The notes beneath the pieces are model-generated. The model did no database searches. It saw only the letters and a list, made by a program, of their open reading frames with translations, and was not told the origin of the DNA. From Hyphomicrobiales bacterium (GTDB lineage Bacteria > Pseudomonadota > Alphaproteobacteria > Rhizobiales > Kaistiaceae): a stretch of 32,000 nucleotides of DNA. The position numbers were made by a program, and so were the translations under genes. This document shows, in pieces, positions 1,123 through 25,850 of the stretch. The stretch is from positions 349,330 through 381,329 of the forward strand of contig JAFKKF010000007.1 in the NCBI GenBank assembly GCA_017305635.1. The letters run 5' to 3'. Position 1 is the stretch's first letter, and each line of letters begins with the position of its first letter.

Positions 1123-3776
1123 TCCGCCTCCCAGACCTGAGTGACTTCGCCGAGCCGCTCCGTGGCGGCCGGCATCTTGCGTTTGCAGTAGGTGGCGTTG
1201 GCGTTGGCCGGCAGGGCAAAGGCGAGGTCGTCGTAGTCGCCGCCGGTATCCGGCCCAGGCAGGGCCGCGCCGCCGGCGAGACTCGCCCGTGCCGCGCGCA
1301 GATAGCCGGTGATCTCCACGAGCACCGCCTCGGGGTCGTCGAGCTGGAGATCGACGGGATCGCGTGGGTAGAGCAGCGAGGCGCTGATCGCGACGTCATC
1401 GCCGAGCAGCGCCTTGACCGCGAACGCATAGAGGCAGCGCTGAAGCTCGCGTCCGCCGTTCAATCGGATGTCGCCGCGCGGCGGGCGGCCGGTCTTATAG
1501 TCGCGCACGAGGGCGCGTTTGCCGTCGCCCGCAATGTCGAGCCGGTCGATATAGCCGGCGATGTTGAAGCCCGTGTCGGGGATCGTGACTGGCGTGCTCG
1601 AATCCCAAGGCGTCTGAGCGTCGGATTTCGGCTGCGAACCGCCGAAAGGAACCTCGCCGTAGGAACGCGCGCCTGGCAGAAGGTCATCGCCATAGGACAG
1701 GGCGCGGCTCGCCAGCATGCGGGCGTCGTCGAGGGTGCGCCCCCAGATGACCGCCGGCGGAACCGGGCGCTCGCTTTCCCAGTCGGCGGCGACGGCTTGC
1801 GCGGCCCGCGCCACGGCGGCTTCGATGGTCTGTGCGTCGGCGGCCGCAAGGCCGCCCCCGGCTTCGAGGTCGCGCAGGGCGTGGTCGAGAACCAGGTGGA
1901 CAAGATCGCCGATCCCGAGCGCGTCGAGCACGAGCGGTTCGGCGCTGCTCTGGGGTTCGCGCCATCCGAACGCATAGATCCACACGAAGCTCAGCGGATT
2001 GCGCAGCAGTCGGCGCAGCGAGCTGGCCGATTGGGTCCGGCCGAGGATGGCGAGGACGAGCGGATGATCCGCGCGCACGAGTCCATCGTGGGGGGTGATC
2101 TCGATCTGTCGCCAGTCGCGCCAGCAGCCTTGCGCGCTGACGGCTTGCGGATCGGCGGCGAATTCCTCGGGCCGCGCCATCAGGCGATCGGTCTCGCTGA
2201 AGGCGTGCGCCGGCGTCGCGTTGCGGCGCAGATAGGTCTCGTCGCCATGTCCGGCGAGCAGAGGGCTGCGCCCCAGGAGACGGCCGTCGCTGTCGCGCCG
2301 TGCGCGCGACAGGACGACGGTGTCGCCCGTCGTGGCGAGGATCGTCTCGAAATCGCGCCGGTCGGCGAGATTGACCGGCAGCGGATCGAGCACCGGGGTC
2401 GGGATGATATGGTCGGGGATCAGCCGGTCTTCGGCGATCCCGCGCGGCCAGCGGGACGAATTGAGGCCAAGCAGCCGCACGAAGCGGCGAGGCGACGCCG
2501 CAAGCGCACTGGCCGGCATCCAGGCGATGCAGACGCAGGCTTCCAGTCCGTCGTCCTGCTTCAGGGTCTCGAGCGTCGCATCGACCGAGGCGGCGGGGCC
2601 GGCGAGCAGCGCCTTGCGCCAGATCGCGAGGGCTCGGCCCTTGAGAAAGGCTTCTCCGATCTCACCGGCGGCCTCCGGCCCTTTCGCCAACGTCTCGACC
2701 GCCGCGCGCAAAGCCGGGGCATGGTCGGCGCCATCGGGCCAGTCGTCCGCCGTCAACCGGGCGAGCAGGCGGTTCCAGGCGCCCGGCGTCGAGAGCGGCG
2801 CATCGGTGGGCAGGACTCGCAGCCAGCCTTCGGGCAGCGACCCAAAAGGTCCGCTGTCCCGGCAGAGCGCGGCAAGCCGACGCAACCGCGAGTGCGACAG
2901 GCCGCGGACCACGATGTCGGCCAGCGCCGCGGCGGCCTGACCGTCGCGGGTGGTGACGGTCCGGACGCCGTGGACGAAATGCAGGTCGATGTTGGCGTCG
3001 GCGCGCAGAGCCAGGAAGTGATCGTCATAGTCGGCGGGCGAGGCGGTCGCGATGGCGATCTCCGAGGGGACGACGCCCGAGGCGAGCAAGCCGCGCGCCC
3101 AGCGCATCGCCTCGATGGCCTCGTGATAGGCCGTCGCCGCGCTGACGGCGTTGATTTTCGGCGCTTGCGCCGGCGCGCGAGCGATCGCGACGCCCGTTAC
3201 GTCCAGCCACACGGGAACGCTCCTCGGGCCGGCCGTCCACTGCACGGGGATATGGGCGGTGAGCGCCTGAAGCAGCGGCCGCCAGCACGGCGAGAGTTCG
3301 GTGAGCCCGACGATCTCCATCGGACCAAGCACCGCCGGCGCATGGGCGAGGCGCTCGGTCGCGGCGGCGGCGATGTCGAGAGGCCGCAGCATGCCGGTCG
3401 GAAGCTGGTCGAGGACGGCCGCCTCCAGGCGTGCGATGGCGGCGAGGCGCGGATGGTCATCGGTCGCGCATGCGGCAAGGTCGATGCCCGCGCGCCAGGC
3501 TTTGTGCAGCGTGTCGGCCGCCGCATCGATCATGCCGGGCAGGGTCTTGATGCTTTCCAGTTCGCCCATCGGCGTGACGGACAGGGCCGCCTGGATGGCC
3601 GCGTGCAGGCTCTCGTCATCGATCGGGCGGACGAAACCGCCGGCCAGCCGGACGGCGGCCTGCTCGAAGGACATGATCTGGAGGCCGTGCCGACCGGTAC
3701 GCCCCGCCGTGAGGCGGTTCTCCCGCATAGCGAGGCGGCCGTGAACGACCAAGGTAGATCGATGCGCGATGGTCAT
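1119..3776 (-). CDS. PD-(D/E)xK nuclease family protein, AddB-like partner of the UvrD helicase
   Basis: 885-aa ORF. The C-terminus carries a RecB-type nuclease signature, GYIDRLDIAGDGKRALVRDYKTGRPP...ELQRCLYAFAV (D...D-Y-K...Q..Y). I found no Walker A in the N-terminal part, as in inactivated-helicase AddB/RexB proteins. Stop codon overlaps the helicase ATG by 4 nt. Confidence 0.8.
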   Translation of the reverse strand: MTIAHRSTLVVHGRLAMRENRLTAGRTGRHGLQIMSFEQAAVRLAGGFVRPIDDESLHAAIQAALSVTPMGELESIKTLPGMIDAAADTLHKAWRAGIDLAACATDDHPRLAAIARLEAAVLDQLPTGMLRPLDIAAAATERLAHAPAVLGPMEIVGLTELSPCWRPLLQALTAHIPVQWTAGPRSVPVWLDVTGVAIARAPAQAPKINAVSAATAYHEAIEAMRWARGLLASGVVPSEIAIATASPADYDDHFLALRADANIDLHFVHGVRTVTTRDGQAAAALADIVVRGLSHSRLRRLAALCRDSGPFGSLPEGWLRVLPTDAPLSTPGAWNRLLARLTADDWPDGADHAPALRAAVETLAKGPEAAGEIGEAFLKGRALAIWRKALLAGPAASVDATLETLKQDDGLEACVCIAWMPASALAASPRRFVRLLGLNSSRWPRGIAEDRLIPDHIIPTPVLDPLPVNLADRRDFETILATTGDTVVLSRARRDSDGRLLGRSPLLAGHGDETYLRRNATPAHAFSETDRLMARPEEFAADPQAVSAQGCWRDWRQIEITPHDGLVRADHPLVLAILGRTQSASSLRRLLRNPLSFVWIYAFGWREPQSSAEPLVLDALGIGDLVHLVLDHALRDLEAGGGLAAADAQTIEAAVARAAQAVAADWESERPVPPAVIWGRTLDDARMLASRALSYGDDLLPGARSYGEVPFGGSQPKSDAQTPWDSSTPVTIPDTGFNIAGYIDRLDIAGDGKRALVRDYKTGRPPRGDIRLNGGRELQRCLYAFAVKALLGDDVAISASLLYPRDPVDLQLDDPEAVLVEITGYLRAARASLAGGAALPGPDTGGDYDDLAFALPANANATYCKRKMPAATERLGEVTQVWEAE

Positions 3777-3885: not shown

Positions 3886-3915
3886 TTGACGAAACCCCCT
3901 AATGGGAATAATAAT
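3886..3915 (+). promoter_or_regulatory. Candidate sigma70-type promoter for the WYL regulator and defence operon
   Basis: TTGACG at 3886-3891, an 18-nt spacer, AATAAT at 3910-3915. It lies in the conspicuously AT-rich 200-bp divergent intergenic region, about 60 nt upstream of the ATG at 3977. An imperfect palindrome GGACCTCAGCAGGTTGTCC (3921-3939) follows and could be an operator. Sequence pattern only. Confidence 0.3.
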
Positions 3916-3976
3916 TACACGGACCTCAGCAGGTTGTCCATATAGTTTTTATCCTCATGTTGGCGAGGCAAGGCAA

Positions 3977-4861
3977 ATGGCGGAAGCCACGACGGCGTTG
4001 AAATGGGGGGTGGGGCGCCGACTCGAATTCATCGAGTTTCGGCTGTTCTGGGAGGGGTCGATCAACCGGGCCGACCTTGTCGAGGCGTTCGGCGTGTCAG
4101 TTCCGCAGGCTTCCAAGGATTTGACGCTCTATCAGGAGCGGGCGCCCGGCAACATGGAGTACGACACCCGCGCCAAGCGCTACGTCGCCGCCGAAAAATT
4201 CGTACTGCGCTTCCTTGAACCGGACCCCTACATCTATCTGTCGCAGCTCCGCTCGGTCGCCGAGGGGGCTCTGCCTGCGAGCGACTCGTGGATCGCGGCG
4301 CTCCCCAGCGCCGATGTGGCGCTAACTCCCAGGCGGGACATCGACATCAAGGTTCTGCGGAAGATTCTCGACGCGAGCCGGGAGGGCGTTTCCATCGACG
4401 TCTTCTACCAGTCGATGAACAAGTTGCGGCCCGAGCCCACCTGGCGACGGATCACCCCGCACGCCTTCGGCTACGATGGTTTCCGCTGGCACGCGCGGGC
4501 CTATTGCCACCTCGAACACAAGTTCAAGGATTTCCTGCTGCCGCGAGTCCTCGACGTTGGCGCGAAGGGGGAGCCTGGCGAGGCGGGCGACCGGGACTGG
4601 CTCTGGAATAACTATTTCGACGTCATCATCGGCCCGCATCCGGGGCTTACGGCGAGCCAGAAGATGGTCGTCGCCAAGGATTATGGGCTGGACCAGGGAA
4701 ACGGCGTGCTCTCGGTTCGCTACGCCATGCTTTTTTACGTTTTGAAGCGCCTGGGTTTGCTTGGTGACGCCGCGAAACAGAGCGCCCATACACAGCATAT
4801 CGTAACAATAAACCGCAAGGAAACTGAAGCCGCGCTTGAGAAGGCGGAGCTTCAGCTATGA
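3977..4861 (+). CDS. wHTH-WYL domain transcriptional regulator, BrxR/CapW-like
   Basis: The ORF track frame starts at 3902; I prefer the internal ATG at 3977 (MAEATTALKWG...). N-terminal winged HTH (INRADLVEAFGVSVPQASKDLTLYQE). Central WYL-type domain (VSIDVFYQSMNKLRPEPTWRRITPHAFGYDGFRWHARAYCHLEHKFKDFLLPRVLDV). A C-terminal extension as in BrxR-family regulators that sit upstream of defence operons. Confidence 0.85.
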   Translation: MAEATTALKWGVGRRLEFIEFRLFWEGSINRADLVEAFGVSVPQASKDLTLYQERAPGNMEYDTRAKRYVAAEKFVLRFLEPDPYIYLSQLRSVAEGALPASDSWIAALPSADVALTPRRDIDIKVLRKILDASREGVSIDVFYQSMNKLRPEPTWRRITPHAFGYDGFRWHARAYCHLEHKFKDFLLPRVLDVGAKGEPGEAGDRDWLWNNYFDVIIGPHPGLTASQKMVVAKDYGLDQGNGVLSVRYAMLFYVLKRLGLLGDAAKQSAHTQHIVTINRKETEAALEKAELQL

Positions 4862-4882: not shown

Positions 4883-7800
4883 ATGCCGGCAAGGCTTGAG
4901 GAGATAAAGAACGGCGCCTCAGTGCGAGGCGTCGCTTCGGCGCAGCCCGTGCATGTGCTTTCGGTCGATTGGATCGGCGATCAGGCGATCAACGTCGTTT
5001 TCCGCGACCGCAACGGCACGGTGGCCGAGGCTGTTCTTTATCGCGACGATGAGCACCGTCTCGAGGTCGAGCAGAACGGCCGACCGTGGTCGTTCGATGT
5101 CGACGGCGCGTTGCTGCGCCTGGTGACGGAAGCCAACCGCATTAAGCTGGCGCACTATTTCGACCCGTATCTGGCGATTCACACGAGCCTGGTCGATCCG
5201 CTGCCGCACCAGATCTCGGCGGTCTATGGCGAGATGCTGCCGCGCCAACCGCTTCGCTTCCTCCTCGCCGACGATCCCGGCGCGGGCAAGACGATCATGG
5301 CCGGGTTGCTGATGAAGGAACTGATCGCCCGCAGCGATCTGGAACGCTGTCTTGTCGTTGCGCCGGGCAGCCTGGTCGAGCAATGGCAGGACGAACTCGG
5401 CCAGAAGTTCAATCTCGAGTTCGACATCCTTTCCCGCGACATGATCGAGAACTCGCGGTCGGGCAATCCGTTCAGCGATAGGGATCGGCTGATCGTCCGT
5501 CTCGACGTGTTGGCGCGCAACGAGGAGCTTCAGGAGAAGCTCATGAGCGCGCGCGAATGGGACCTGATTATCTGCGACGAAGCCCACCGCATGTCCGCCA
5601 CCTATTTCGGCGGTGAGGTCAAATATACGCGGCGCTATCAGGTCGGCCAGAAGCTCGGTCAGGTTTGCCGCCACCTACTGCTGATGTCGGCGACGCCGCA
5701 CAACGGCAAGGAAGAGGATTTCCAGCTCTTCATGGCGCTCCTCGACGGCGATCGGTTCGAGGGCCGGTTCCGCGACGGTGTCCACTATGCCGACACGGAA
5801 GACATGATGCGGCGGCTGACCAAGGAAGAGCTGCTCAAGTTCGATGGCCGGCCGCTGTTCCCCGAGCGGCGCGCGCGCACGGTCAAGTATCAGCTCTCGG
5901 AAGGGGAGGCAGCGCTCTACACCGCCGTCACCGAATATGTGCGCAGCGAGATGAACCGCGTGCAGCGCTTCGCCGAGGGCGACGGGAAGAAGCGCAACAA
6001 CGTCGGGTTTGCCTTGCAGATACTTCAGCGGCGTCTCGCCTCGTCGCCGGCCGCCATCTATCAGTCCCTCAAGCGCCGCCGGGAACGGTTGGAAAACGAG
6101 CTGGGCGAAGCGCGCCTGGCCGCCAAGGGCCGCCGGGCCGGCGCAACCGAGCCCGCGATCAACGCTGACATGCTGCGGAACATCGAGGAGTATGGCCAGG
6201 AGGAGATCGACGAGCTTGAGGATCTGATCTCGACGGGCGCGACGACGGCCGAGACGGTCGAGCAACTCGCTCTGGAAGTCGAAACCCTGAAGGGGTTGGA
6301 GACGATGGCGCTCGGCGTGCTGCGCTCAGGCGTGGACACGAAATGGAGCCAGCTCAATCGTATTCTCGACGATGATCTGATGGTCGACGCGGCCGGCAAT
6401 CGTCGCAAGCTGATCATCTTCACCGAGCCCAAGGACACGCTGCACTACCTGCTCGACAAGGTGCGGGCGCGGCTCGGCAACCCCGAGGCCGTCGAGGTGA
6501 TCCACGGCGGCGTGTCGCGCGAAGAGCGGCGCAAGGTCGTCGAGCGCTTCATGCAGGACAAGGACATGCTGGTCCTGATCGCCAACGACGCGGCGGGCGA
6601 AGGCGTGAACCTCCAGCGCGGCCATCTCATGGTCAATTACGACCTGCCGTGGAATCCGAACAAGATCGAGCAGCGGTTCGGCCGTATCCACCGCATCGGC
6701 CAGACCGAGGTTTGCCACCTGTGGAATCTCGTCGCGGCCGATACTCGCGAGGGCGAGGTTTACGCGCGGCTGCTGGAGAAACTGGAAGCGGCGCGCGAGG
6801 CGCTGGGCGGCCGGGTCTATGACGTGCTCGGCGAATTGTTCGACGGCGTGGCGCTGAAGGATTTGCTGTTCGAGGCGATCCAGTATGGCGAGCAGGAGGA
6901 CGTGAAAGCGCGTCTTTTCCAGCAGGTCGATGGTGCGGTGGATCAGGCGCACCTGCTCGAACTGCTGCGCCGCCGCGCCCTGACCAACGACACCATGCCG
7001 GAAGCGAGGGTCGAGGAATTGCGGCTGGAGATGGAGCGGGCCGAGGCGCTGCGCCTACAGCCGCACCACATCCAGAGCTTCTTCGTCGAGGCGTTCCAGC
7101 ATCTGGGCGGGCGCATCAAGCGCCGGGAGGAAGGGCGTTGGGAGGTCACGCATGTCCCGGTGCGCATCCGCGAGCGGGATCGCCAGATCGGAACCGGCGC
7201 GCCGCTCCAGACGCAGTATGAGCGCATCTGCTTCGAGAAGGACAAGATCAACCAGCAGCCCGTCGCCGCCTTCGTTTGTCCCGGCCACCCGCTGCTCGAG
7301 GCCGTGATCAGCCTGATCCGCGAACAGTATGAGCAGATTATGCGGCAGGGCGCGATCCTGGTCGACGACACCGACGCGGGCAATGCGCTGTCGGCGATTT
7401 TCCTGCTGGAACATACGGTCCAGGACGGTCGCGTCACCAGCGCCGGCAAGCCGCATGTGATCTCGCAGCGCCTCCAGTTCGCTGCGATCGACAAGGCCGG
7501 AAACACCGTCAACGCGGGCATCGCGCCGCATTTGAATCTGCGGCCGGCAACGCCGGAGGAAATCGGCAGCGTGCGAGAGCTTCTGGACGAGAGTTGGCTG
7601 ACCACCGACTTGGAGAAGGTCGCGATCCGGTTTGCGACGGTCGAACTGGCGCAAGGCCACGTCACAGAGGTCAAGGCGCGGCGGCTGCCCGAGATCGAAA
7701 AGGTCGAGCAGGAAGTTCGCGCTCGCCTCAAGAAGGAGATCAATTACTGGGACTCGCGCGCCTTCGAGCTGAAGGAGGAGGAGCGCGCCGGCAAGAAAAC

Positions 7801-8386
7801 GCGGGTGAACTGGCAGAACGCGCAGCGCCGTGCCGAAGACTTGGCGGATCGGCAGAAGCGGCGCATGGACCAGCTTGAGCGGGAGCGTTTCATCTCGTCG
7901 CAGCCCCCGCGTGTGCGGGGCGGCATGGTCGTCATTCCGCGTGGACTGTTGCAAGAGCGCCAGGCGCCGAGCATTCCGAACCATTTTGCAGAAGACCCGG
8001 CCGCGCGCCGGGAGATCGAGCTCGCGGCGATGGCGGCTGTGATGGCGGCCGAACGCGCGCTGGGCAACGAGCCCGCCGACGTCTCCGCCCAGAAGATCGG
8101 CTACGACATCGCGTCCCACGATCCGCGGTCGGGGCATCTGCGCTTCATCGAGGTCAAGGGCCGCATCGATGGCGCGGACAGCGTGATGGTCACGCGCCAG
8201 GAGGTCATCACCTCCCTGCATGAACCGGAGAAGTTTATTCTCGCCATCGTGCCGGTCGCCGCGGGTTTCGCTCATGCGCCGCGCTATGTGCGCGGCCCGC
8301 TCGTGGAACGGGAACCGTCGTTTCTCGAGACCGCGATCCAGTTCCATTTGCCACGCCTACTCGAGCGTGCGGAGGAACCGCGATGA
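4883..8386 (+). CDS. SNF2-family (SF2) helicase/translocase with a C-terminal DUF3883 PD-(D/E)xK-like domain
   Basis: 1167 aa. Motif I LADDPGAGKT, motif II DEAH (ICDEAHRM), motif III MSATPHNG, motif VI QRFGRIHRIGQ. C-terminal about 130 aa: AERALGNEPADVSAQKIGYDIASHD...LRFIEVKGR, giving a D (8105-8107) ... E-V-K (8150-8158) nuclease-fold signature typical of DUF3883. G-rich SD GGGGGGAG at 4869-4876. Confidence 0.9.
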   Translation: MPARLEEIKNGASVRGVASAQPVHVLSVDWIGDQAINVVFRDRNGTVAEAVLYRDDEHRLEVEQNGRPWSFDVDGALLRLVTEANRIKLAHYFDPYLAIHTSLVDPLPHQISAVYGEMLPRQPLRFLLADDPGAGKTIMAGLLMKELIARSDLERCLVVAPGSLVEQWQDELGQKFNLEFDILSRDMIENSRSGNPFSDRDRLIVRLDVLARNEELQEKLMSAREWDLIICDEAHRMSATYFGGEVKYTRRYQVGQKLGQVCRHLLLMSATPHNGKEEDFQLFMALLDGDRFEGRFRDGVHYADTEDMMRRLTKEELLKFDGRPLFPERRARTVKYQLSEGEAALYTAVTEYVRSEMNRVQRFAEGDGKKRNNVGFALQILQRRLASSPAAIYQSLKRRRERLENELGEARLAAKGRRAGATEPAINADMLRNIEEYGQEEIDELEDLISTGATTAETVEQLALEVETLKGLETMALGVLRSGVDTKWSQLNRILDDDLMVDAAGNRRKLIIFTEPKDTLHYLLDKVRARLGNPEAVEVIHGGVSREERRKVVERFMQDKDMLVLIANDAAGEGVNLQRGHLMVNYDLPWNPNKIEQRFGRIHRIGQTEVCHLWNLVAADTREGEVYARLLEKLEAAREALGGRVYDVLGELFDGVALKDLLFEAIQYGEQEDVKARLFQQVDGAVDQAHLLELLRRRALTNDTMPEARVEELRLEMERAEALRLQPHHIQSFFVEAFQHLGGRIKRREEGRWEVTHVPVRIRERDRQIGTGAPLQTQYERICFEKDKINQQPVAAFVCPGHPLLEAVISLIREQYEQIMRQGAILVDDTDAGNALSAIFLLEHTVQDGRVTSAGKPHVISQRLQFAAIDKAGNTVNAGIAPHLNLRPATPEEIGSVRELLDESWLTTDLEKVAIRFATVELAQGHVTEVKARRLPEIEKVEQEVRARLKKEINYWDSRAFELKEEERAGKKTRVNWQNAQRRAEDLADRQKRRMDQLERERFISSQPPRVRGGMVVIPRGLLQERQAPSIPNHFAEDPAARREIELAAMAAVMAAERALGNEPADVSAQKIGYDIASHDPRSGHLRFIEVKGRIDGADSVMVTRQEVITSLHEPEKFILAIVPVAAGFAHAPRYVRGPLVEREPSFLETAIQFHLPRLLERAEEPR

Positions 8387-9357
8387 GGATCACCAAAGGT
8401 CTGATCATCGCCGACCCGTGGATCGGCTACATTCTCAGCGGGACCAAGGACTGGGAGATGCGCTCCTCGGGGGCGTCACATCGCGGCTGGTTTGCGCTGA
8501 TCCGTAAAGGCAGTGGGACGATCTATGGCATTGCCCGACTGGTCGACGTGGGGTCGCCGCTATCGCCAACGGAGATGGTCGTCACGTTCGCGCATCATCG
8601 TATTCCCGAGCACATGATTCGGTCGGGCGAAGTCGCCAAATGGAATACGCCTTGGAAGCTCGCCGATGTGCGTCGGTTCGAACGTCCGATCCCGTATCGG
8701 CACAAGAGTGGTGCCGTGACTTGGGTCGAACTGGACGACGCAGCCATCGATGGTGTCGCCAGTCAGCTCGAGGCTGGAGATATGACGATCGCCCCCGAAG
8801 CAGCAGCGCGGCCGGATGACGGCTCGCGGCGTGATCGCGTTGGCAGCGCCGATACGGTGACGGTTGAGGTCTCTCAGTGCGGCAGGAAGCTGCATATCGA
8901 CATCGAATGGGATGATCGGGAGCCGGACGCTGTCGCGGCGGTGAAACCGCGACCTGCGCCAGTATCGCCCCGTCCTCTGACGCTGCCGCCTATAACGGCT
9001 GCGCAGACAGCAGCGGGGCGTGTGATCGGCGAGGTGGAGATTGCCGACGGAAATATCACGAACAACCACATCTACCTGCGCTCATTTTTCGACCGCTTTC
9101 CGGCCGACGTCATTGGCGGTTCAAACAAGGCGACGAGAGCAAGGCGCGATCTCACGATCGACTGGGGCGGCGCGGAGCCGGTCCAGACCGACCTCGACGG
9201 CCAGAAGAAGTTTTTCCGTGCTCGCGGCTGGATCGGCGCCTTCTATCAGTTGCATCGCGCTCAGGCCGGGGACCGCGTCGTGGTCGAGGAGATCACGGCC
9301 TATCATTATCGCGTCAGTCTCAGAAAACAGGGACCGCGAGCAGGAGCGGCCCGATGA
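8383..9357 (+). CDS. ASCH (PUA-like) domain protein with an A/P/R/D-rich linker and an unassigned, possibly B3/EcoRII-N-like, C-terminal domain
   Basis: 324 aa. N-terminal about 115 aa contain the ASCH signature GxKxxExR (SGTKDWEMR) in an ASCH-like context (IIADPWIGYILSGTKDWEMRS...GTIYGIARLVDV). C-terminal about 100 aa: NNHIYLRSFFDRFPADVIG...DLTIDWGG...KKFFRARGWIGAFYQLHRAQAGDRVVVEEI. ATGA overlap with the helicase stop; SD GGAGGAA at 8371-8377. Confidence 0.8.
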   Translation: MRITKGLIIADPWIGYILSGTKDWEMRSSGASHRGWFALIRKGSGTIYGIARLVDVGSPLSPTEMVVTFAHHRIPEHMIRSGEVAKWNTPWKLADVRRFERPIPYRHKSGAVTWVELDDAAIDGVASQLEAGDMTIAPEAAARPDDGSRRDRVGSADTVTVEVSQCGRKLHIDIEWDDREPDAVAAVKPRPAPVSPRPLTLPPITAAQTAAGRVIGEVEIADGNITNNHIYLRSFFDRFPADVIGGSNKATRARRDLTIDWGGAEPVQTDLDGQKKFFRARGWIGAFYQLHRAQAGDRVVVEEITAYHYRVSLRKQGPRAGAAR

Positions 9358-10346
9358 TCGACGGATTGGACGACCAGCTTTGTGATTGGGCTGAGCTGAA
9401 AGATCAGGAGGATTGGTCGGGACTGCTCATCGGCAACGGATTTAGCCAGAATCTGTGGCAGCGTTTTGGGTATGGTTCGCTATTCGAGACCGCAGCGCAA
9501 GGCGATGGAGCGCAGCTCAACGCCGCAGATGTCTCACTGTTTGACCGCCTGGAAACACGAAACTTCGAAGTTGTTTTGAGCGCCTTGGCGACCAGCAAGA
9601 CCGTGTCCGCGGCGCTCGATCAGCCACTGGCCCCGTTTTCAGAGCGAGAGGTCAGTATTCGGGAGGCGCTGATCCGGGCCGTCCATTCGGTCCATGTGCC
9701 ATGGCAATCCGTACCTGCCGCCCACCTCGACGTTATCGCCGCCGAACTATCAGCTTATGCGTCGATCTACTGCACGAATTATGACCTCACGCTCTATTGG
9801 GCGCTCATGCGGAATCAGAACGGCTTCCGGGATTATTTTTGGTCGGAGAAGTTCGACGTCACAAACACCGAGATCTGGGGCAAAAGGACCAAGGTGCATT
9901 TCCTGCATGGCGGCCTGCACCTCTATCGGCGACCGAACGGCCAGACATTGAAGAGACCGGCCGCGGCGGGACAAAACCTGCTCGATCTGTTCGGAACCGC
10001 CTATCAGGATTCTATGCCGCTCTTCATTTCGGAGGGGACGGCTCAGGAGAAGCTCGCGTCGATCTATCGGTCCGACTACCTCTCCTTTGTATTCGCTTGC
10101 CTGGCGCAGGACACGGAACCCTTGGTTGTCTTTGGTCACAGCCTTGGCGACAGCGACAAGCACCTCATAGACGCTATCGGAAACCACAAAGGCCGTTCGG
10201 TTGCCGTATCGCTCCGCGCCTCCGGCAACATTCGGCAGAAGAAGGCCGCGCTGATTGAAGCGCTGCCCGAAGCCACGCTGCATTTCTACGACGCCGCCAC
10301 GCATCCGCTGGGCGCAGAAAACCTCCAAATTGAAGAGCCCGCGTAA
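9354..10346 (+). CDS. DUF4917-family protein (SIR2-like fold inferred)
   Basis: 330 aa. N-terminal WSGLLIGNGFSQNLW matches the DUF4917 opening motif (LLxGNGFS). Also FLHGGLHLY and VVFGHSLGDSDKHLIDAI, which parallel the GxG..S / LHG / fGyS..D layout of SIR2-like defence proteins. ATGA overlap with the upstream gene (9354-9357); SD AGGAG at 9342-9346. Confidence 0.8.
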   Translation: MIDGLDDQLCDWAELKDQEDWSGLLIGNGFSQNLWQRFGYGSLFETAAQGDGAQLNAADVSLFDRLETRNFEVVLSALATSKTVSAALDQPLAPFSEREVSIREALIRAVHSVHVPWQSVPAAHLDVIAAELSAYASIYCTNYDLTLYWALMRNQNGFRDYFWSEKFDVTNTEIWGKRTKVHFLHGGLHLYRRPNGQTLKRPAAAGQNLLDLFGTAYQDSMPLFISEGTAQEKLASIYRSDYLSFVFACLAQDTEPLVVFGHSLGDSDKHLIDAIGNHKGRSVAVSLRASGNIRQKKAALIEALPEATLHFYDAATHPLGAENLQIEEPA

Positions 10347-13072
10347 TGACCCAGAATTACAAAAAGAAACTCATAGAAATCGCAATTCCACTCGAGGCGA
10401 TTAATGCGGCGTCGGCGCGGGAAAAATCGATCCGACACGGGCATCCGTCGACATTGCATCTATGGTGGGCGCGCCGTCCGCTCGCGGCATGTCGGGCGGT
10501 GCTGTTCGCCCAGCTTGTCGATGATCCGTCGAGCCATCCCGAAAAATTCGTGACCGAGGAGGAGATCGAAACTGAACGCGATCGTCTCTTCCGGATCATC
10601 GAGGACTTGGTGAAGTGGGAGAATTCTACCAACGAGGAAGTTCTGGAACGCGCCCGCGCTGAAATTCGCAGGAATTTTCCGGAAGGCGTCCCTCCGGCCT
10701 ATGACCCCTTTTCCGGGGGGGCCTCTATTCCACTCGAGGCTCTCCGGCTCGGTTTGCGGTCGACCGGGTCTGATCTCAACCCTGTTGCCGTGATGATCGG
10801 CAAGGCAATGATCGAGCTGCCTTCCCAATTCAAGGATCGGAAGCCTGTCCATCCCGGCAAACTGGAGCGCCTGCACTATCGCGGCGCTGAAGGTCTTGCC
10901 GAGGACATTCTCTGGTATGCGCAGGCGCTAACCGACAAGGCGCGGGAGAAAATTGGACACCTCTATCCGCAGGTCGCTCTTCCTAAGAAGGATGGCGGCG
11001 GCGAAGCTACCATCCTCGCTTGGCTGTGGGCCAGGACCGTTGCTAGTCCGAACCCGGCGGTGCGCGGCGCCCATGTCCCTTTGATTTCCAACTATTGGCT
11101 TTGCAACAAGCCCAAGAAATCAGTTTGGGTGCAGCCCACCATCAGCGGTTCTGACATCTCCTTCGAAATTCGCACTGGTAAACCCGCTGATCCGGGTGCC
11201 GTCGCGGCAGGCACCAAGGCGGGCCGGGGTGCGAATTTCAGATGCCTCCTAACCGGCGACGCGATCACGGCCGACTATGTGAAGGCCGAGGGCATGGCCG
11301 GTAGGATGGGCTGGCGACTGCTTGCCATAGTTTTGGAAGGTAAAGGCGGACGCCGATACGTTGCTCCAACAAAAGAACATGAAACTTTGGCTTTCAGCGA
11401 AAAGCCTGATTGGAGGCCGGAGTATCCTCTATCGCAACATCCCCAGTATATGAGTGTGACCAATTATGGTCCGACCAATATCGCCGATCTTTTCATGGAT
11501 CGGCAGACCATCGCGTTGAATACATTCATGGGCATCATTCCAGATGTTGTCCGCGAAATCTCGGACGAAGCATACCGAAAGGCAATCGTCTCATATCTTG
11601 TGTTGGGCGTGAGCAGGTTGGCTAACAGGCAGTCGACAAGCGCCTTTTGGGATACCGCTGGAGAGAACGTGCAGCAGGTGTTTGCAATGCAGGCCTTGCC
11701 GATGCGCTGGGACACGGTTGAAGGAAACCCGTTCTCGTCGTCCTCGGGCAATTTCATCGGTCAGGTCGAATATCTGGCGAAAGCCGTGGCCGCTCTTCCC
11801 TGTTCGGATCAGGGTGGCATCGAACACCAAATGGATGCCCAGAACGTAGATTTCTCAGGCTTCGTTATCTCTACCGACCCGCCGTATTACGACAACGTCC
11901 CTTATGCGGATTTGTCCGATTTCTTCTATGTCTGGCTGCGGAAAGGGCTGGCAGGGGCCTACCCGGACCTGTTTTCGACCATGCTGGTTCCCAAGCAAGA
12001 GGAACTGGTTGCCGACTATAAACGCCACGGCGGTAAGGACCAGGCCGACAGCTTCTTTCTCGAAGGTATGACTACCGTCATGCGTCACATGGCGACGCAG
12101 GGCCGGCCCGATGTGCCTGCTGCGATTTATTATGCTTTCCGGCAAGGCGAGGTCGACGAAAGCGGTTTCTCGGTTAAGGGGTGGGCGACCTTCCTTCAGG
12201 CGATTGTCGACGCCGGCTATTCGATCGGGGCGACATGGCCGGTACGGACCGAGCTTGTTGGCAACCTCAAGAAAAACAAAAACGCGCTCGCTACGTCTGT
12301 CGTGATGGCGTGTCGGCCTCGTGCGGCGGATGCCGAGACGATCTCGCGCATCGAGTTTATCCGGGCGCTGCGCCGTGAACTGCCCGCAGCCCTCAAGGAG
12401 ATGCACCGCGCAAGCATCGCTCCGGTGGATATTCCCCAGGCTTCCATCGGCCCCGGCATAGCGATTTTCAGCCGCTACGCCTCAGTGATCGAACGCGATG
12501 ACAGCCCGATGTCGGTGAAGACCGCCTTGCAAATCATCAACGAGGAACTGGATCAGTATCTTTCCTCTCAGGAAGGTGATTTTGATCCGGAGACGCGCTT
12601 TGCCGTGACCTGGTTCACTCAGCATGGGTACGAAAAGGGCTTGTTCGGCGATGCCGATAACCTTGCTCGCGCCCGTGGCATTTCGGTGGACGATGTACGC
12701 CATGCTGGCATCGTGGAATCATCGGCAGGGCGAGTCCGCATCTACAAGCGGGAAGACCTAGAGGACGATTGGAATCCCGAAACGGACCGCCATCTCACCA
12801 TCTGGGAATGTTGCCAGTATCTCGTGCGTCAACATCAACTGGATGGGTTGTCGCATGAGACGGCATTGCTCCTGAAGAAGGTTGGGAGCGACAAGGCCGA
12901 GGCGGTGAAGGACTTGGCTTACGTCCTTTATGAAATCAGCGACAAACGGCGGCAGGATCGCCAAGAGGCCACTACCTACAACGCGCTCGTCACCGACTGG
13001 ACCGAACTGACGCGGCAGGCTGCGGCGATCCACGACACCGTCGGCGATCGCCAGATCAAGCTGGACATCTGA
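10346..13072 (+). CDS. DUF1156-family DNA amino-methyltransferase (N6-adenine or N4-cytosine, DPPY type)
   Basis: 908 aa. Hallmark DUF1156 N-terminus LIEIAIPLEAINAASAREKSIRHGHPSTLHLWWARRPLAACRAVLFA. AdoMet motif I-like DPFSGGASIPLEA (10703-10741). Catalytic motif IV DPPY at 11876-11887 (ISTDPPYYDNVPYADLSDFFYVWL). The start overlaps the upstream TAA by 1 nt (TAATG). Confidence 0.9.
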   Translation: MTQNYKKKLIEIAIPLEAINAASAREKSIRHGHPSTLHLWWARRPLAACRAVLFAQLVDDPSSHPEKFVTEEEIETERDRLFRIIEDLVKWENSTNEEVLERARAEIRRNFPEGVPPAYDPFSGGASIPLEALRLGLRSTGSDLNPVAVMIGKAMIELPSQFKDRKPVHPGKLERLHYRGAEGLAEDILWYAQALTDKAREKIGHLYPQVALPKKDGGGEATILAWLWARTVASPNPAVRGAHVPLISNYWLCNKPKKSVWVQPTISGSDISFEIRTGKPADPGAVAAGTKAGRGANFRCLLTGDAITADYVKAEGMAGRMGWRLLAIVLEGKGGRRYVAPTKEHETLAFSEKPDWRPEYPLSQHPQYMSVTNYGPTNIADLFMDRQTIALNTFMGIIPDVVREISDEAYRKAIVSYLVLGVSRLANRQSTSAFWDTAGENVQQVFAMQALPMRWDTVEGNPFSSSSGNFIGQVEYLAKAVAALPCSDQGGIEHQMDAQNVDFSGFVISTDPPYYDNVPYADLSDFFYVWLRKGLAGAYPDLFSTMLVPKQEELVADYKRHGGKDQADSFFLEGMTTVMRHMATQGRPDVPAAIYYAFRQGEVDESGFSVKGWATFLQAIVDAGYSIGATWPVRTELVGNLKKNKNALATSVVMACRPRAADAETISRIEFIRALRRELPAALKEMHRASIAPVDIPQASIGPGIAIFSRYASVIERDDSPMSVKTALQIINEELDQYLSSQEGDFDPETRFAVTWFTQHGYEKGLFGDADNLARARGISVDDVRHAGIVESSAGRVRIYKREDLEDDWNPETDRHLTIWECCQYLVRQHQLDGLSHETALLLKKVGSDKAEAVKDLAYVLYEISDKRRQDRQEATTYNALVTDWTELTRQAAAIHDTVGDRQIKLDI

Positions 13073-13085: not shown

Positions 13086-16000
13086 GTGGCAAAAAGCACG
13101 CGCCAATATGTGTTTGAAGGAATGGAGTTGCTCCCGGCGGCGCTCATCCCGTTCGTAGAGAAAAGGCTGGAAAGTTCGCTTAAGGGGCACTGGCAGGTCC
13201 AGGTGCTGGAGAAGTTGCCGAACCTGCGCCCCAACAGCAGCGGTGAGGTCGGTTGGGACCAGGCCGCGCTGTTCAACGCCATGGATCGCTTTTGGAGCGA
13301 GGCGTTCAAGGCCGTGCTTGGCCGCGCCGAGCGCTCGCTGGTCAACGAGCTCGGGGATGTCCGCAACAAGCTCTCGCACAACGAGACCTTCACCTACGAC
13401 GACGCCGAACGTGCGCTCGATTCCATGCGGCGCTTGATGGAGGCGATCAGCGCCGGCGAGACGGCGGAGCAGCTCGGTAAGATGCGCGACACCATCCTGC
13501 GCACGAAGTTCACGGAGCTTCAGCGGAACGAGGAGAGGCGGAAAACCCAGCGCCTTGAGATTTCGGTCGAGACTGTGGCCGGGCTGTTGCCGTGGCGCGA
13601 GGTGGTCGAACCCCACCAGGATGTCGCCACCGGCGAGTTCCAGCAGGCCGAGTTCGCGGCCGACCTCGCCAAGGTGCATTCGGGCAGCGCGCCACCGGAA
13701 TACCGCGACCCGCGTCAGTTCTTCAGCCGCACCTATCTGACGGAAGGTTTGAGCGCGCTGTTGATTGGGGCCGCGAAGCGGCTGTCCGGTAGCGGCGGCG
13801 ATCCGGTCGTCGAACTGCAAACCAACTTTGGCGGCGGCAAGACGCACTCGATGTTGGCGCTCTATCACATGGCTGGGCCTGCCCCCGTGCAGGACCTCTC
13901 CGGCTTGGACCAGTTGCTCGAAAAGCAGGGGCTCAGCGTGCCGCAGGGCATCAACCGCGCCGTGCTCGTCGGCACGTCGCGCGGGCCGCAGGACGTGCTC
14001 CATGCCGAGGGCGATCGGAAGATTCGCACAACCTGGGGCGAACTCGCCTGGCAGCTTGGCGGCGCCGACGCTTTCGCCATGGTCGCGGAGAATGACGCCA
14101 GCGGCATCGCGCCGGGCTCGAACCTGCTGGAAGCGCTCTTCAAGAAATATGCGCCGTGCCTGATCCTGATCGACGAATGGGTCGCGTACCTGCGTCAGAT
14201 CTACAAGGTCGAGGGACTGCCGTCCGGGTCGTTCGATGCCAACCTGTCCTTCGTCCAGTCGCTGACCGAGGCGGTCAAGGCCAGCCCCGGCACGCTGCTC
14301 GTCGCGTCCTTGCCGGCCTCGCAGATCGAGGTGGGCGGCGAAGGCGGCCAGGAAGCGCTTGCTCGACTCAAGCAGACCTTCAGCCGCGTGGAATCCTCAT
14401 GGCGTCCGGCGAGTCAGGAGGAGAGCTATGAGATCGTCCGGCGGCGGCTGTTCAAGGACATCCCCGGCGACAAGTTCCACCATCGCGACAACACGCTGAA
14501 GCAGTTCGCGAAGCTCTACCGTGAGAACGCCAACGATTTTCCGCAAGGCTGCGCGGACGAAGACTATCGGCGCAAGTTGGAGAAGGCTTATCCGATCCAT
14601 CCCGAGTTGTTCGACCAGCTCTACACGAGCTGGGGGTCGCTCGAAAAATTCCAGCGCACGCGCGGCGTGCTGCGCCTGATGGCGCAGGCTATTCACGAGC
14701 TGTGGATGAACGCGGATCCGTCGGTGATGATCATGCCGGGCAGCGTGGCGGTGAGTTCACCGCGTGTGGAGCCCGAATTGCTGCACTATCTTGAGGTGAG
14801 TTGGCAGTCGATCATCGCCGGCGATGTCGATGGTGCGACGTCCACGCCCTACAAGATCGACCAGTCCGCGCCCAACCTAAACCGATACTCTGCGACGCGT
14901 CGCGTCGCGCGCGCGATCTTCATGGGGACGGCGCCGACGCATCAGCAGCAAAACACGGGCCTCGACGACAAACAGATCAACCTCGGCGTCGTGCAGCCCG
15001 GCGAGCGGCCCGCGATCTTTGGTGATGCGCTCCGGCGGCTAACCAACCAGGCCAAGTTCATGCACGCTGATCTCGGCCGCTACTGGTATTCCATGTCGGC
15101 CAGCCTCAATCGCATCGCGGCGGACAAGGCCGCGCAGATCGAGGCGGCATTGGTTGACGTTAGGATTGATGCGGAACTCGGCAAATATGTGAATGGCCTT
15201 GTGGACCGCGGGCATTTCGACGCCGTGCAGGTTGCGCCTGCTTCATCGGCCGAAGTGCCCGATGAAGCCGGAGGCGTGCGGGCCGTGGTGTTAGGGGTTG
15301 CACATCCACACAGCGGGCGCGACACGTCGGAGGCCCTCGCCGAGGCTAAGGACATGCTGACGCAGCGCGGTTCCGCACCGCGCGTTTATCGCAACATGCT
15401 GGTTTTCATTGCCGCAGACTCGCGCCAGCTCGATAACCTGAAGGACGCTATGCGCGCGTCCCTGGCCTGGGGCGAGATCGTTCGTGACAAGGAGCGTTTG
15501 GAGCTTCGGCCGAGCGATCAGAAACTCGCGGAGGCCAAGCTGGCCGAGGCGACAGAAACGATGAAGACGCGCCTCAAAGAGGCGTGGTGCTACCTGCATT
15601 ATCCGGCGCAGGAGAGCGCTCAGACCGATGTGGAGTGGGTCTCGGGCAAGATCCCGGCGCAGGATGGGCTACTGGCGCGCGCCAGCAAGAAGCTCGTGGC
15701 CGAGGAAGGTCTGTTGACCGAGCTGGGGCCGTCGCGTCTCGATCGCGATCTCCAGAAATACATCTGGAACGACAAGCCACATCTGTCGCTGAAGGATCTG
15801 CGGGAATACCTCAATCGCTACATCTATCTGCCCCGCCTCAAGGGGCAGGACGTCCTGATCAAGGCCGTGCAGGCGGCCGTCAGCGGCATGTTGCCCGGTC
15901 CCTTCGCCTATGCCGAGCGATGGGACGAGAAGACCGATACCTATCTGGGGCTCGCTATCGAGCGGGGCGGCAACGCGCCTGTGGTGATCGACAGCGATAG

Positions 16001-16388
16001 CGTCATCATCAAACCGGACGTGGCCGAAGCGCATCGCCCGGCGCCTTCGCAACCCGGGGCGGGTGATACGCCTGGAGGCGCCGACAGTGGCGGACCCACG
16101 CCCGCGCCTGGCGGGCCGGGCGTCGAGGAGACGCCTGCCACGCCGCCGACGGAAAAGAAGCCGACACGTTTCAGCGGCGCGGTGATGATTTCACCGGAGC
16201 GCCCCGCCAGGGACATTCACCAGATTGTCGAGGCGATCGTGGAGCAGCTGACGACGCTGCCCGGCAGCGAGGTGCGGTTGAGACTGGAGATCGAGGCGGA
16301 TGTGCCGGGTGGGCTTGATCGCGCCAAGGTGCGGACCTTGGTCGAGAATGCAAACACCCTGGGGTTTGTCGAGAAGTCAGTAGAGTGA
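13086..16388 (+). CDS. Swt1-like HEPN domain + DUF499 P-loop ATPase
   Basis: 1100 aa from a GTG start 13 nt after the MTase stop, preceded by GGGGGGA. HEPN Rx4H motif RNKLSH at 13362-13379 (ELGDVRNKLSHNETFTYDDAERALDSM). Walker A NFGGGKTHS (GGGKT 13830-13844). Walker B CLILIDEW (DE 14172-14177). A P/G-rich linker and a small C-terminal domain, as in DUF499 proteins. Confidence 0.9.
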   Translation: MAKSTRQYVFEGMELLPAALIPFVEKRLESSLKGHWQVQVLEKLPNLRPNSSGEVGWDQAALFNAMDRFWSEAFKAVLGRAERSLVNELGDVRNKLSHNETFTYDDAERALDSMRRLMEAISAGETAEQLGKMRDTILRTKFTELQRNEERRKTQRLEISVETVAGLLPWREVVEPHQDVATGEFQQAEFAADLAKVHSGSAPPEYRDPRQFFSRTYLTEGLSALLIGAAKRLSGSGGDPVVELQTNFGGGKTHSMLALYHMAGPAPVQDLSGLDQLLEKQGLSVPQGINRAVLVGTSRGPQDVLHAEGDRKIRTTWGELAWQLGGADAFAMVAENDASGIAPGSNLLEALFKKYAPCLILIDEWVAYLRQIYKVEGLPSGSFDANLSFVQSLTEAVKASPGTLLVASLPASQIEVGGEGGQEALARLKQTFSRVESSWRPASQEESYEIVRRRLFKDIPGDKFHHRDNTLKQFAKLYRENANDFPQGCADEDYRRKLEKAYPIHPELFDQLYTSWGSLEKFQRTRGVLRLMAQAIHELWMNADPSVMIMPGSVAVSSPRVEPELLHYLEVSWQSIIAGDVDGATSTPYKIDQSAPNLNRYSATRRVARAIFMGTAPTHQQQNTGLDDKQINLGVVQPGERPAIFGDALRRLTNQAKFMHADLGRYWYSMSASLNRIAADKAAQIEAALVDVRIDAELGKYVNGLVDRGHFDAVQVAPASSAEVPDEAGGVRAVVLGVAHPHSGRDTSEALAEAKDMLTQRGSAPRVYRNMLVFIAADSRQLDNLKDAMRASLAWGEIVRDKERLELRPSDQKLAEAKLAEATETMKTRLKEAWCYLHYPAQESAQTDVEWVSGKIPAQDGLLARASKKLVAEEGLLTELGPSRLDRDLQKYIWNDKPHLSLKDLREYLNRYIYLPRLKGQDVLIKAVQAAVSGMLPGPFAYAERWDEKTDTYLGLAIERGGNAPVVIDSDSVIIKPDVAEAHRPAPSQPGAGDTPGGADSGGPTPAPGGPGVEETPATPPTEKKPTRFSGAVMISPERPARDIHQIVEAIVEQLTTLPGSEVRLRLEIEADVPGGLDRAKVRTLVENANTLGFVEKSVE

Positions 16389-16502
16389 GTGCGGGGCAAC
16401 GTGGGTGCAATCCGCCATTTCTGTAAAACCATGCTTATTCAAACACATGAAACAATGAGGGGGTAAAATGTAGCGCGGCAAGATGTGGAGAAGAGTAGCT
16501 CC

Positions 16503-17453
16503 ATGGTGATCGAGTTGCGCAACATTCACTACTTCGTCGCGGCTGCGGAGCATGGTAGCTTTCGCAGGGCGGCGGCATTCCTGAGTATTCAGGAATCTGC
16601 CGTCAGCCGCCGCATCCGCGATCTCGAGGACCGGCTTGGCGCTTCCTTGTTCCACCGCCACTCCGGCGGCGTTTCCCTCACGGTGGCGGGCGAACGGTTT
16701 CTAAGTCGTGTGCGGATCGCCCTCCAGCAGATCGAAAATGGCGTCAACGATGTCGCCGCGATCGGCCGATCCGAGGACGGCATCGTCAAGATCGGCATCT
16801 TCTCGTCCCTGGCGTCGGGTTTCCTGTTCGACCTGATGAAGGCGTTCGACGAGAAGCATCCGCGCGTGACGGTCGAACTGATCGAAGGCAATCCATCGGT
16901 CCATGTCGCGGCGGTCCGGCAGCTCCAGCTCGACGTGGCGTTCATCACCGGCACGGGCGAGTGGCCCGGCTGCGAAACCGAGCAGCTATGGACGGAAGGC
17001 GTGTTCGCCGTCCTGCCGACGGAACACGGTCTTACGAAGAAGCAGAGCTTGCGCTGGCGCGATCTTGATGAGGAGACCTTCATCGTCAGCGATGCCGCGC
17101 CGGGACCGGAAATCCGCGATTATCTGGTCCAGCGCCTGGCGGATCTCGGCCGCCATCCGAACATCCACCCTCAATATGTCGGGCGCGATGTCCTTCTGTC
17201 GATGGTCGCCGTGGGGCGCGGACTGACAGTGGTCAGCGAGGCGGCGACCGGCGCGCGCTTTCCCGGCGTCGTCTATCGGCAGATCGCAGATGAGGTCCTG
17301 CCGTTCAGTGCGATCTGGTCGCGCCGAAACGACAATCCGGCATTTCGCAGGTTTCTCAGCCTTGCTCGAATACTGTCGCGATCCGAAAGCGCGAATATCA
17401 AACGGACGGGTTCGCCCGCTTCGCCTTCGCAAAGCCGCGATCCGTCCCGATGA
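16503..17453 (+). CDS. LysR-family transcriptional regulator
   Basis: MVIELRNIHYFVAAAEHGSFRRAAAFLSIQESAVSRRIRDLEDRLGASLFHRHSGGVSLTVAGERFL is a canonical LysR HTH, followed by a substrate-binding-type domain. The track starts at GTG 16485; I prefer ATG 16503. Confidence 0.85.
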   Translation: MVIELRNIHYFVAAAEHGSFRRAAAFLSIQESAVSRRIRDLEDRLGASLFHRHSGGVSLTVAGERFLSRVRIALQQIENGVNDVAAIGRSEDGIVKIGIFSSLASGFLFDLMKAFDEKHPRVTVELIEGNPSVHVAAVRQLQLDVAFITGTGEWPGCETEQLWTEGVFAVLPTEHGLTKKQSLRWRDLDEETFIVSDAAPGPEIRDYLVQRLADLGRHPNIHPQYVGRDVLLSMVAVGRGLTVVSEAATGARFPGVVYRQIADEVLPFSAIWSRRNDNPAFRRFLSLARILSRSESANIKRTGSPASPSQSRDPSR

Positions 17454-20624: not shown

Positions 20625-20626
20625 GG

Positions 20627-21976: not shown

Positions 21977-21978
21977 GG

Positions 21979-22356: not shown

Positions 22357-22366
22357 CGCGCCGCCC

Positions 22367-25563: not shown

Positions 25564-25577
25564 CGGCGCGCTCCCGC

Positions 25578-25850
25578 TCAGACCGTGAGGTGCGCGGGGA
25601 TGCGCAGGTGGCGGCGGCCGACATCGACGAACAGCGGATCGCGCTTGGCCGCCCACACCGCGGCGACGTGGCCGACGGCCCAGATGACGATGCCGACCAG
25701 CCAGAGGCGCAGGCCGAGGCCGAGCGCGCCCGCCAGCGTGCCGTTCATGATGGCGAGCGCGCGCGGCGCGCCGCCGAGCAGGATCGGCTCGGACAACGCC
25801 CGGTGGACCGGCACGGTGAAGCCCGGCAGATCGTCGGCCCCACCCAGCAT
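25578..25850 (-). CDS. trbD: Conjugal transfer protein TrbD (VirB3 family)
   Basis: 90 aa. VHRALSEPILLGGAPRALAIMNGTLAGALGLGLRLWLVG...AAKRDPLF is typical TrbD. Positioned between trbC and trbE. Confidence 0.85.
   Translation of the reverse strand: MLGGADDLPGFTVPVHRALSEPILLGGAPRALAIMNGTLAGALGLGLRLWLVGIVIWAVGHVAAVWAAKRDPLFVDVGRRHLRIPAHLTV

Follow-up and report, generated by a model that had tools for sequence, protein, structure and literature searches.

A DUF4917 protein with a SIR2-like fold is encoded between hmaA and hmaB of an Hma operon: a candidate stand-alone NAD+ hydrolase

The window analysed here is a 32,000-nucleotide (nt) stretch of contig JAFKKF010000007.1 from a Hyphomicrobiales bacterium. 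It carries six tightly packed co-directional genes in the order WYL-HmaA-ASCH/B3-DUF4917-HmaB-HmaC, and the subject of this work is the fourth of them, an open reading frame (ORF) at positions 9354–10346 of the forward strand. The gene encodes a DUF4917 protein of 330 amino acids (aa), a predicted stand-alone SIR2-like (SIRim/SIR2_2-type) hydrolase of nicotinamide adenine dinucleotide (NAD+), which matches the PADLOC candidate PDC-S21. The ORF is present as described in the initial annotation of this DNA, as are the three peptides quoted there, namely LLIGNGFSQNLW (residues 24–35), FLHGGLHLY (residues 183–191) and VVFGHSLGDSDKHL (residues 258–271). The same holds for both gene overlaps. At the 5' junction (cccgATGAtc at 9354) the ATGA of positions 9354–9357 forms a 4-nt overlap with the upstream ORF (8383–9357), and at the 3' junction (gcgTAATGacc at 10344–10348) a 1-nt overlap is formed with the downstream ORF (10346–13072). 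The sequence AGGAG is located 7 nt 5' of the ATG. The tight overlaps fit the co-expression of the gene with its neighbours, as had been proposed.

The protein belongs to the Pfam family DUF4917 (PF16263; E 5.7e-44, 151.2 bits at a gathering threshold of 28). A collection of 5.8 billion proteins yielded 1379 homologues at E ≤ 1e-5, and an exhaustive search with the family profile gave 3195 clusters at 50% identity, 1321 of them with E ≤ 1e-30. Almost all members are single-domain proteins of 320–360 aa. The Pfam score together with the number of homologues places the observation far beyond chance. No homologue was found by tblastn in 50,697 phage records and no viral structural match to the protein model in the BFVD library, so DUF4917 is unlikely to stem from phages or to counteract defence.

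The structure of the protein was modelled with AlphaFold2 from 39 homologues (predicted local distance difference test score, pLDDT, 91.9; predicted template modelling score, pTM, 0.90). A Foldseek search of the model against the PDB gave 80 matches at E ≤ 0.001; the 50 that were listed are without exception defence-type SIR2 NAD+ hydrolase (NADase) domains. They include SIR2-HerA/Nezha (8sub, E 4e-11, probability 1.0) and PsSIR2 (8w9l), as well as ThsA (6lhx), KomC (8zsf) and DSR2 (8wya), the matches to the ThsA, DSR and KomC structures having E-values from 5e-6 to 1e-4. The same relationship is seen at the level of sequence: a DUF4917 profile built from 74 diverse members matches the solved SIR2 protein 8w9l with E 4.9e-5, and in the alignment with the E. 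coli Nezha Sir2 protein (8j4u) LLGNGaS is paired with LLGAGAS, TNYDLLxYWA with TNYDLALEWA and LHG with LHG. Sub-threshold Pfam matches point in this direction too (SIR2_2 in 15 and AbiH in 18 of 39 DUF4917 members, best 2.7e-4), and the PADLOC Aga_SIR2 and SIR2 models match the protein weakly. The SIR2-like reading of the initial annotation is thus upheld by the fold matches and the profile match, and also by the conserved catalytic residues described below.

Conservation was examined in 159 non-identical DUF4917 homologues with 36–98% identity. Residues G27, N28, G29, S31, N142, Y143, D144, H185 and G186 are 98–100% conserved, and in the model each SIR2 motif follows a β-strand in the canonical SIR2 order. 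The dinucleotide-binding loop G27-N28-G29-F-S31 (9432–9446, forward strand), which corresponds to the SIR2 GAGxS motif, comes after strand β1 (residues 23–26), is found in 157/157 aligned residues and aligns with LLGAGAS of 8j4u. The segment T141-N142-Y143-D144 (9774–9785, forward strand) is the equivalent of the SIR2 catalytic TQNxD and aligns with TTNYDL of 8w9l and 8j4u (N in 156/159, D in 159/159). The putative catalytic histidine of the HG motif is provided by H185-G186 (9906–9911, forward strand), invariant in 159/159 homologues and aligned with HG of 8w9l and 8j4u; PDB entry titles naming DSR2 H171A and KomBC H146N mark the equivalent residue. Two of these motifs, the GNG loop and HG, had already been recognized in the initial annotation, and TNYD, the most diagnostic one, was missing from its list. 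The 'fGxS..D' element described there for the C-terminal part is retained in part. It belongs to a loop after a β-strand (G261...D268-x-H270; 10134–10163, forward strand) with G261 in 157/159, D268 in 158/159 and H270 in 159/159 homologues, but its serine is not conserved (S263 in only 69/159). This loop overlaps the weak AbiH and SIR2_2 matches, the AbiH match covering residues 247–278. Beyond the core SIR2 set, further polar residues are invariant, namely E72, H114, H189, E227, K233, D268, H270 and H317.

The protein is therefore SIR2-like by four independent lines: structure, sequence profile, Pfam and conservation. The classical sirtuins (PF02146) carry a zinc-binding Cys4 ribbon. The DUF4917 protein has three cysteines, none of them conserved among the 159 homologues, and hence no sirtuin zinc ribbon. 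The insert between β1 and β2 (residues 43–132) is all-helical in the model. Taken together with the motifs and the fold, these features place the protein in the SIRim branch, the 'immune' SIR2 domains of NADase type (10.1101/2024.09.18.613514), and not among the classical deacylase sirtuins. The SIR2 fold fills all 330 aa of the model, leaving no sensor domain.

The genes surrounding the DUF4917 gene identify the operon as an Hma system, in which an SNF2-restriction endonuclease helicase, a DUF1156 methyltransferase and a DUF499 ATPase are clustered in canonical order, as judged from profile matches to the encoded proteins. HmaA (4883–8386, forward strand; PADLOC HmaA E=0 over the full length) combines an SNF2 helicase (Pfam SNF2-rel_dom and Helicase_C) with a NOV_C/DUF3883 nuclease domain at its C-terminus (Pfam NOV_C). 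HmaB (10346–13072, forward strand; PADLOC HmaB E=0, Pfam DUF1156) is an N6-adenine DNA methyltransferase, in agreement with the methylase that had been annotated downstream. HmaC (13086–16388, forward strand; PADLOC HmaC 4.7e-287) joins a HEPN_Swt1 domain to an AAA+ ATPase of the DUF499 family (both domains found by Pfam). The Hma system of Payne et al. has since been renamed a type-1 DUF499-centred system related to bacteriophage exclusion (BREX) (PMC12839542). It is rare, with 1,485 distinct systems from >230,000 genomes, and embedded genes are found in 62.7% of the Hma systems (10.1101/2024.01.29.577857).

The position of the DUF4917 gene within Hma is recurrent. In total, 113 loci with assessable flanks were compared. 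Because calling the longest ORFs gave spurious antisense ORFs in high-GC loci such as L002, a caller filtered by the GC content at third codon positions (GC3) was used in its place, and it failed on five loci. DUF4917 homologues with 36–98% identity are embedded in Hma at 18 distinct loci, usually directly 5' of hmaB, and the association covers several phyla, including a locus of Planctomycetota (L015). Full flanks were available for 12 Hma loci, and in 10 of them the end of the DUF4917 gene lies ≤27 nt from the hmaB start, and the stop and start codons often overlap. This recurrent, translationally coupled DUF4917-hmaB arrangement is the new and useful point of the analysis. The slot itself is variable. 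In relatives whose HmaA and HmaC are 90–97% identical to those of the window it holds other genes (Bradyrhizobium pBb323S2c and Niveispirillum, L094 and L095; in Ochrobactrum, L182, a 162-aa gene and a 1413-aa ATPase-like gene) or, in Rhodoblastus (L183), the ASCH-B3 gene only. In several loci a GmrSD/BrxU-like gene is stacked with DUF4917. Such cargo behaviour agrees with the pattern of an 'embedded defence gene' described by Payne et al. (10.1101/2024.01.29.577857).

Other homologues are found next to other defence systems. A homologue from Planctomycetia (L024, 4226–13934, 40% identity) is located directly 5' of BREX-2 PglW and PglX (both PADLOC E=0) and is preceded by DUF5131 and GMT-wHTH genes. 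Two contigs of Phycisphaeraceae (L003, 4016–10981, and L090, 4082–11023) have the order GNAT, ASCH, type IIG restriction-modification (RM) enzyme, DUF4917, and one further locus (L150, 10001–13827) the order DUF4917, 169-aa gene, GNAT-PIN, ASCH. Homologues also stand beside an Old/GajA-like ATPase (L006), a PDC-S37/Hhe helicase-nuclease (L104) and a CRISPR I-U locus with a PIN toxin-antitoxin pair (L087). DUF4917 homologues thus recur in the 18 Hma loci and beside BREX-2, type IIG RM, Old-like, Hhe-like and CRISPR genes, which covers a part of the enrichment test proposed in the initial annotation, but the association is not universal, as discussed below.

The family is already catalogued as a defence candidate. 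The protein matches the profile of PDC-S21 over its full length (hidden Markov model PDLC04961, 6.1e-102, residues 6–325 on positions 10–333 of 336; PDLC04960, 8.4e-65), and like PDC-S21 it is a single-gene candidate embedded in a multi-gene defence system, the host system here being Hma. The PDC entries of PADLOC were nominated by 'guilt-by-embedding' and described as untested (Payne et al., 10.1101/2024.01.29.577857); the searched part of the supplements of that paper has no entry for DUF4917, PF16263 or PDC-S21. Embedded cargo between hma genes is a known feature of Hma. The present case differs in kind from the embedded and auxiliary effectors in the published main-text lists, which are nucleases, ATP-binding cassette (ABC) ATPases, GmrSD and RNases, and a word search of the main texts of two papers cataloguing such effectors gave no mention of SIR2. 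The DUF4917 protein joins the SIR2 NADase-type defence effectors as an already catalogued candidate (PDC-S21) of unproven function.

Among the known members of this class, SIR2-HerA/Nezha (8sub, 8j4u, 8w9l) provides the best structure and sequence matches: GxGxS, TNYDL and HG align, and the zinc ribbon is absent in both. The identity is 14–16% at a TM-score of about 0.5, and the present operon has no HerA gene, the neighbours of DUF4917 being ASCH-B3 and HmaB. ThsA, DSR1/DSR2 and KomC share the SIR2 NADase fold class and the catalytic histidine, but their SIR2 domains work in a different setting. In ThsA the domain is fused to a SLOG/Macro sensor and has the TIR protein ThsB as a partner, neither of which is present here (no TIR or SLOG domain was detected in the operon by the Pfam scan); DSR1 and DSR2 possess a large C-terminal sensor and comprise about 1000 aa against 330 aa in the present protein; and KomA/B partner genes of KomC are absent here. 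The nearest functional analogue is the single-gene abortive-infection protein AbiH of Lactococcus. It is also a stand-alone protein of about 330–350 aa with a SIR2-like fold, without a sensor domain, found on mobile elements, and has been described as sirtuin-like and associated with integrative conjugative elements (PMC13064643). The DUF4917 protein reaches 15.4 bits with the AbiH family (PF14253), for which the threshold is 30.9, and the mechanism of AbiH is unproven as well.

On balance, and with moderate confidence, we lean towards a stand-alone, sensor-less SIR2-type NAD+ hydrolase which is carried as cargo in the Hma slot between HmaA/ASCH-B3 and hmaB and acts as a second-line abortive-infection effector. 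The protein would be held inactive in the uninfected cell. When an invader overcomes restriction by Hma or disturbs it, NAD+ would be bound via the GNGxS loop, and N142, D144 and H185 would cleave the nicotinamide-ribose bond. The resulting depletion of NAD+ would stop the growth of the infected cell. A biochemical precedent for such activity is the reported consumption of NAD+ by SliP, a DUF4917 protein of C. jejuni characterized in 2023 (PMC10421069), so the remark of the initial annotation that the family has no experimentally defined function is outdated. SliP is reported to consume NAD+ and to deacetylate lysine peptides, and mutants in the glycines of its G-N-G motif have reduced NAD+ consumption (PMC10421069). 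It shares the Pfam family DUF4917 and the G-N-G motif with the present protein.

A number of observations weigh against a cargo NADase of this kind. The TM-scores between the model and solved SIR2 structures are moderate (0.45–0.57). The protein has neither a sensor domain nor an obvious partner to supply the trigger. SliP, the only characterized DUF4917 protein, is described not as an NADase defence effector but as a secreted deacetylase, and a literature search gave no paper mentioning PDC-S21 and no activity or phage assay for the candidate or for this protein. In an automatic screen no neighbour belonging to Hma, type IIG RM or Old-like systems was seen at 93 of the 113 loci, a count from biased sampling with no genome-wide background. 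A few of these 93 loci adjoin other defence genes, and most of them, including a big Pseudomonas clade, are located among housekeeping genes. The members of this clade (L019–L080, ~40% identity, match at ~10001–10985) are found at a chromosomal site that is roughly syntenic and has no obvious defence genes nearby, the neighbours being a methyl-accepting chemotaxis protein, extracytoplasmic function (ECF) sigma factor, FecR and TonB-receptor genes of iron uptake, an XRE-cupin regulator and an aldolase. A homologue from Beijerinckiaceae as close as 63% identity also stands among housekeeping genes, and others are found beside polysaccharide, ABC-transporter or thioredoxin genes. A housekeeping setting of this kind, shared by many homologues, is unusual for a gene dedicated to immunity.

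The SIR2-HerA comparison raises another possibility, since the DUF4917 protein finds its best structural matches in SIR2 subunits dependent on a partner ATPase. The protein may be an integrated NAD-consuming effector arm of one Hma sub-lineage, allosterically activated by the AAA+ ATPase HmaC or the helicase-nuclease HmaA, possibly together with the ASCH-B3 protein as a reader, upon the sensing of foreign DNA that is unmethylated or modified. Partnerships of this kind are found between SIR2 proteins and HerA, short prokaryotic Argonautes and STAND ATPases. The close spacing to hmaB and the persistence of the association over 36–98% identity and several phyla agree with this proposal. So does the co-divergence with the host system: the identity of DUF4917 homologues to the protein of the window tracks the identity of HmaA (Spearman 0.95, n=12) and of HmaC (0.99, n=8), although this correlation may just mirror host relatedness. 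The GC3 of the DUF4917 gene (0.69) resembles that of hmaB (0.66), unlike that of hmaA and hmaC (0.81–0.83). However, relatives with near-identical HmaA and HmaC lack DUF4917 or carry other cargo, and most family members are solitary or stand beside other systems. We regard an Hma-activated arm as unlikely, though it is the main rival of the cargo NADase. Were it true, RM-like discrimination of self from non-self would be coupled directly to abortive infection, and the arrangement would be the Hma counterpart of SIR2-HerA.

A strict co-evolution of DUF4917 with HmaB was also considered and was ruled out, because HmaB is ~50–54% identical even where DUF4917 is 61–82% identical. HmaB of the relatives L094 and L095 is only ~53% identical to that of the window, although their HmaA and HmaC are 90–97% identical. 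The low GC3 of all three central genes (0.66–0.70 in ASCH-B3, DUF4917 and HmaB versus 0.81–0.83 in HmaA and HmaC) and the divergent HmaB between near-identical outer genes make the centre of the operon mosaic. This pattern in the sequences suggests that a central module of methylase (specificity) and cargo may be exchanged between Hma systems.

The properties of SliP could alternatively mean that the DUF4917 protein is a sirtuin-like deacylase of proteins (or nucleic acids) or an ADP-ribosyltransferase acting on a specific target, such as a protein of the phage, one of the Hma components or a modified base that ASCH handles, and does not deplete bulk NAD+. SliP has the same G-N-G motif and is reported to show NAD+-dependent lysine deacetylation (PMC10421069), ASCH genes accompany DUF4917 in three architectures (see below), and the extra invariant polar residues could form a substrate site. 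We consider this improbable. The Cys4 zinc module of the classical deacylase sirtuins is missing, no such sirtuin occurs among the 50 PDB fold matches listed, and the Pfam scan of the operon revealed no macrodomain or other partner that would handle ADP-ribose. The measured activities of SliP are moreover weak, with changes of about 2-fold (PMC10421069). The context of SliP differs from the present one: it is reported as a flagellum-secreted histone deacetylase and virulence factor whose gene lies next to dnaK/grpE and not in a defence operon (PMC10421069). Least probable of all, and in our view very doubtful, is that the protein is a passenger on mobile DNA, an NAD-related enzyme with a housekeeping or niche role outside defence, and that its position in Hma is without functional meaning: the large syntenic Pseudomonas clade, whose neighbours are chemotaxis and iron-uptake genes, and the homologues beside polysaccharide, ABC-transporter and thioredoxin genes speak for it, but insertion between hmaA and hmaB at 18 distinct loci despite the rarity of Hma, homologues beside BREX-2, RM, Old-like and CRISPR loci and the translational coupling within the operon speak against it.

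If the DUF4917 protein is the stand-alone NADase that we favour, it would represent a minimal SIR2 immune effector of about 330 aa with no sensor, which bears on the question of how AbiH-like proteins stay off and then switch on. Its repeated placement before hmaB offers a testable case of whether genes embedded in BREX-like systems are independent or wired into the host system. The gene would also give an experimental handle on PDC-S21, and it would help to decide whether immunity is the main role of the DUF4917 family (about 3,200 clusters at 50% identity), as opposed to the secreted-deacetylase role reported for SliP.

The gene preceding DUF4917 (8383–9357, forward strand) encodes a two-domain protein with an ASCH domain and a B3-like DNA-binding domain. 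The upstream gene had been annotated as ASCH, and its fold is confirmed by the model although the Pfam ASCH match is sub-threshold (17.8 bits). The N-terminal domain of the model matches ASCH structures (2dp9, E 1e-8; TRIP4; ZmASCH). The C-terminal part is a B3-like pseudobarrel which matches B3 domains and the N-terminal domain of LlaJI.R1 (E about 0.02, probability 0.99), and the two domains are connected by a disordered, variable linker. No match for the ASCH-like protein was found in PADLOC. In many alphaproteobacterial Hma systems the ASCH-B3 gene follows hmaA with an ATGA overlap, and in this group it accompanies HmaA almost constantly, with DUF4917 or without it (L183, L182, L094). In this Hma lineage the protein appears to be close to a core component, though it has not been recognised as one. 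An obligate ASCH-DUF4917 pair is ruled out, since Hma systems contain ASCH-B3 without DUF4917 (L183, L182) and DUF4917 without ASCH-B3 (L083, L125, L130). ASCH-domain genes recur beside DUF4917 in the three architectures mentioned above: ASCH-B3 in Hma and, with small ASCH genes, GNAT-ASCH-type IIG RM and GNAT-PIN with ASCH.

The first gene of the operon (3902–4861, forward strand) encodes a WYL/BrxR-like regulator (Pfam WYL), the relatives of which carry WHD_BrxR, WYL and BrxR_CTD. The gene was called from the ATG at 3902, which gives a protein of 319 aa; relatives have 287–297 aa, 294 aa among them. A sigma-70-like site with 10 of 12 matching positions is found at 3886–3915, before this gene. 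Promoter and terminator scanning gave counts no different from those in shuffled sequence and was used only for this site. The true start is probably ~75 nt downstream of 3902, in view of the shorter relatives and the promoter-like site.

Downstream of the operon, on the reverse strand (17627–31839), lies a Trb/VirB-type conjugation module recognized by Pfam (TrbI, TrbG/CagX, VirB8/TrbF, a TrbE-like ATPase, TrbC pilin, the TraG coupling protein and a DUF3363/MobA-like relaxase). The same arrangement of operon and conjugation genes occurs in two relatives (L081 and L097). In the latter, the chromosome of Sphingopyxis sp. 113P3 (CP009452.1, ~1.085–1.106 Mb), the whole arrangement is 94–99% identical at the protein level, the operon being 98–99% identical. 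A megablast search of the operon against plasmids gave only partial relatives. The Hma operon is cargo of a conjugative element, and the near-identical chromosomal copy in Sphingopyxis indicates that it is probably an integrative conjugative element.

Further genes accompany the operon on either side. An 885-aa PD-(D/E)XK protein is encoded on the reverse strand of the window at 1119–3776, together with an ORF at 1–1140 (reverse strand). Relatives pair this protein with a 1132-aa UvrD-like helicase-nuclease, and the AddAB-like pair, divergent from the Hma operon, is kept with it in L097 and L183. In Ochrobactrum (L182, 1025–3251) a DncV-like nucleotidyltransferase and a patatin phospholipase, resembling a pair of the cyclic-oligonucleotide-based anti-phage signalling system (CBASS), are found immediately 5' of the Hma operon and together with it make up a small island of defence genes on one element. 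Directly 3' of hmaC the window contains a gene for a LysR-family regulator (16485–17453, forward strand), which has the same position in L081, L097 and L183/L184.

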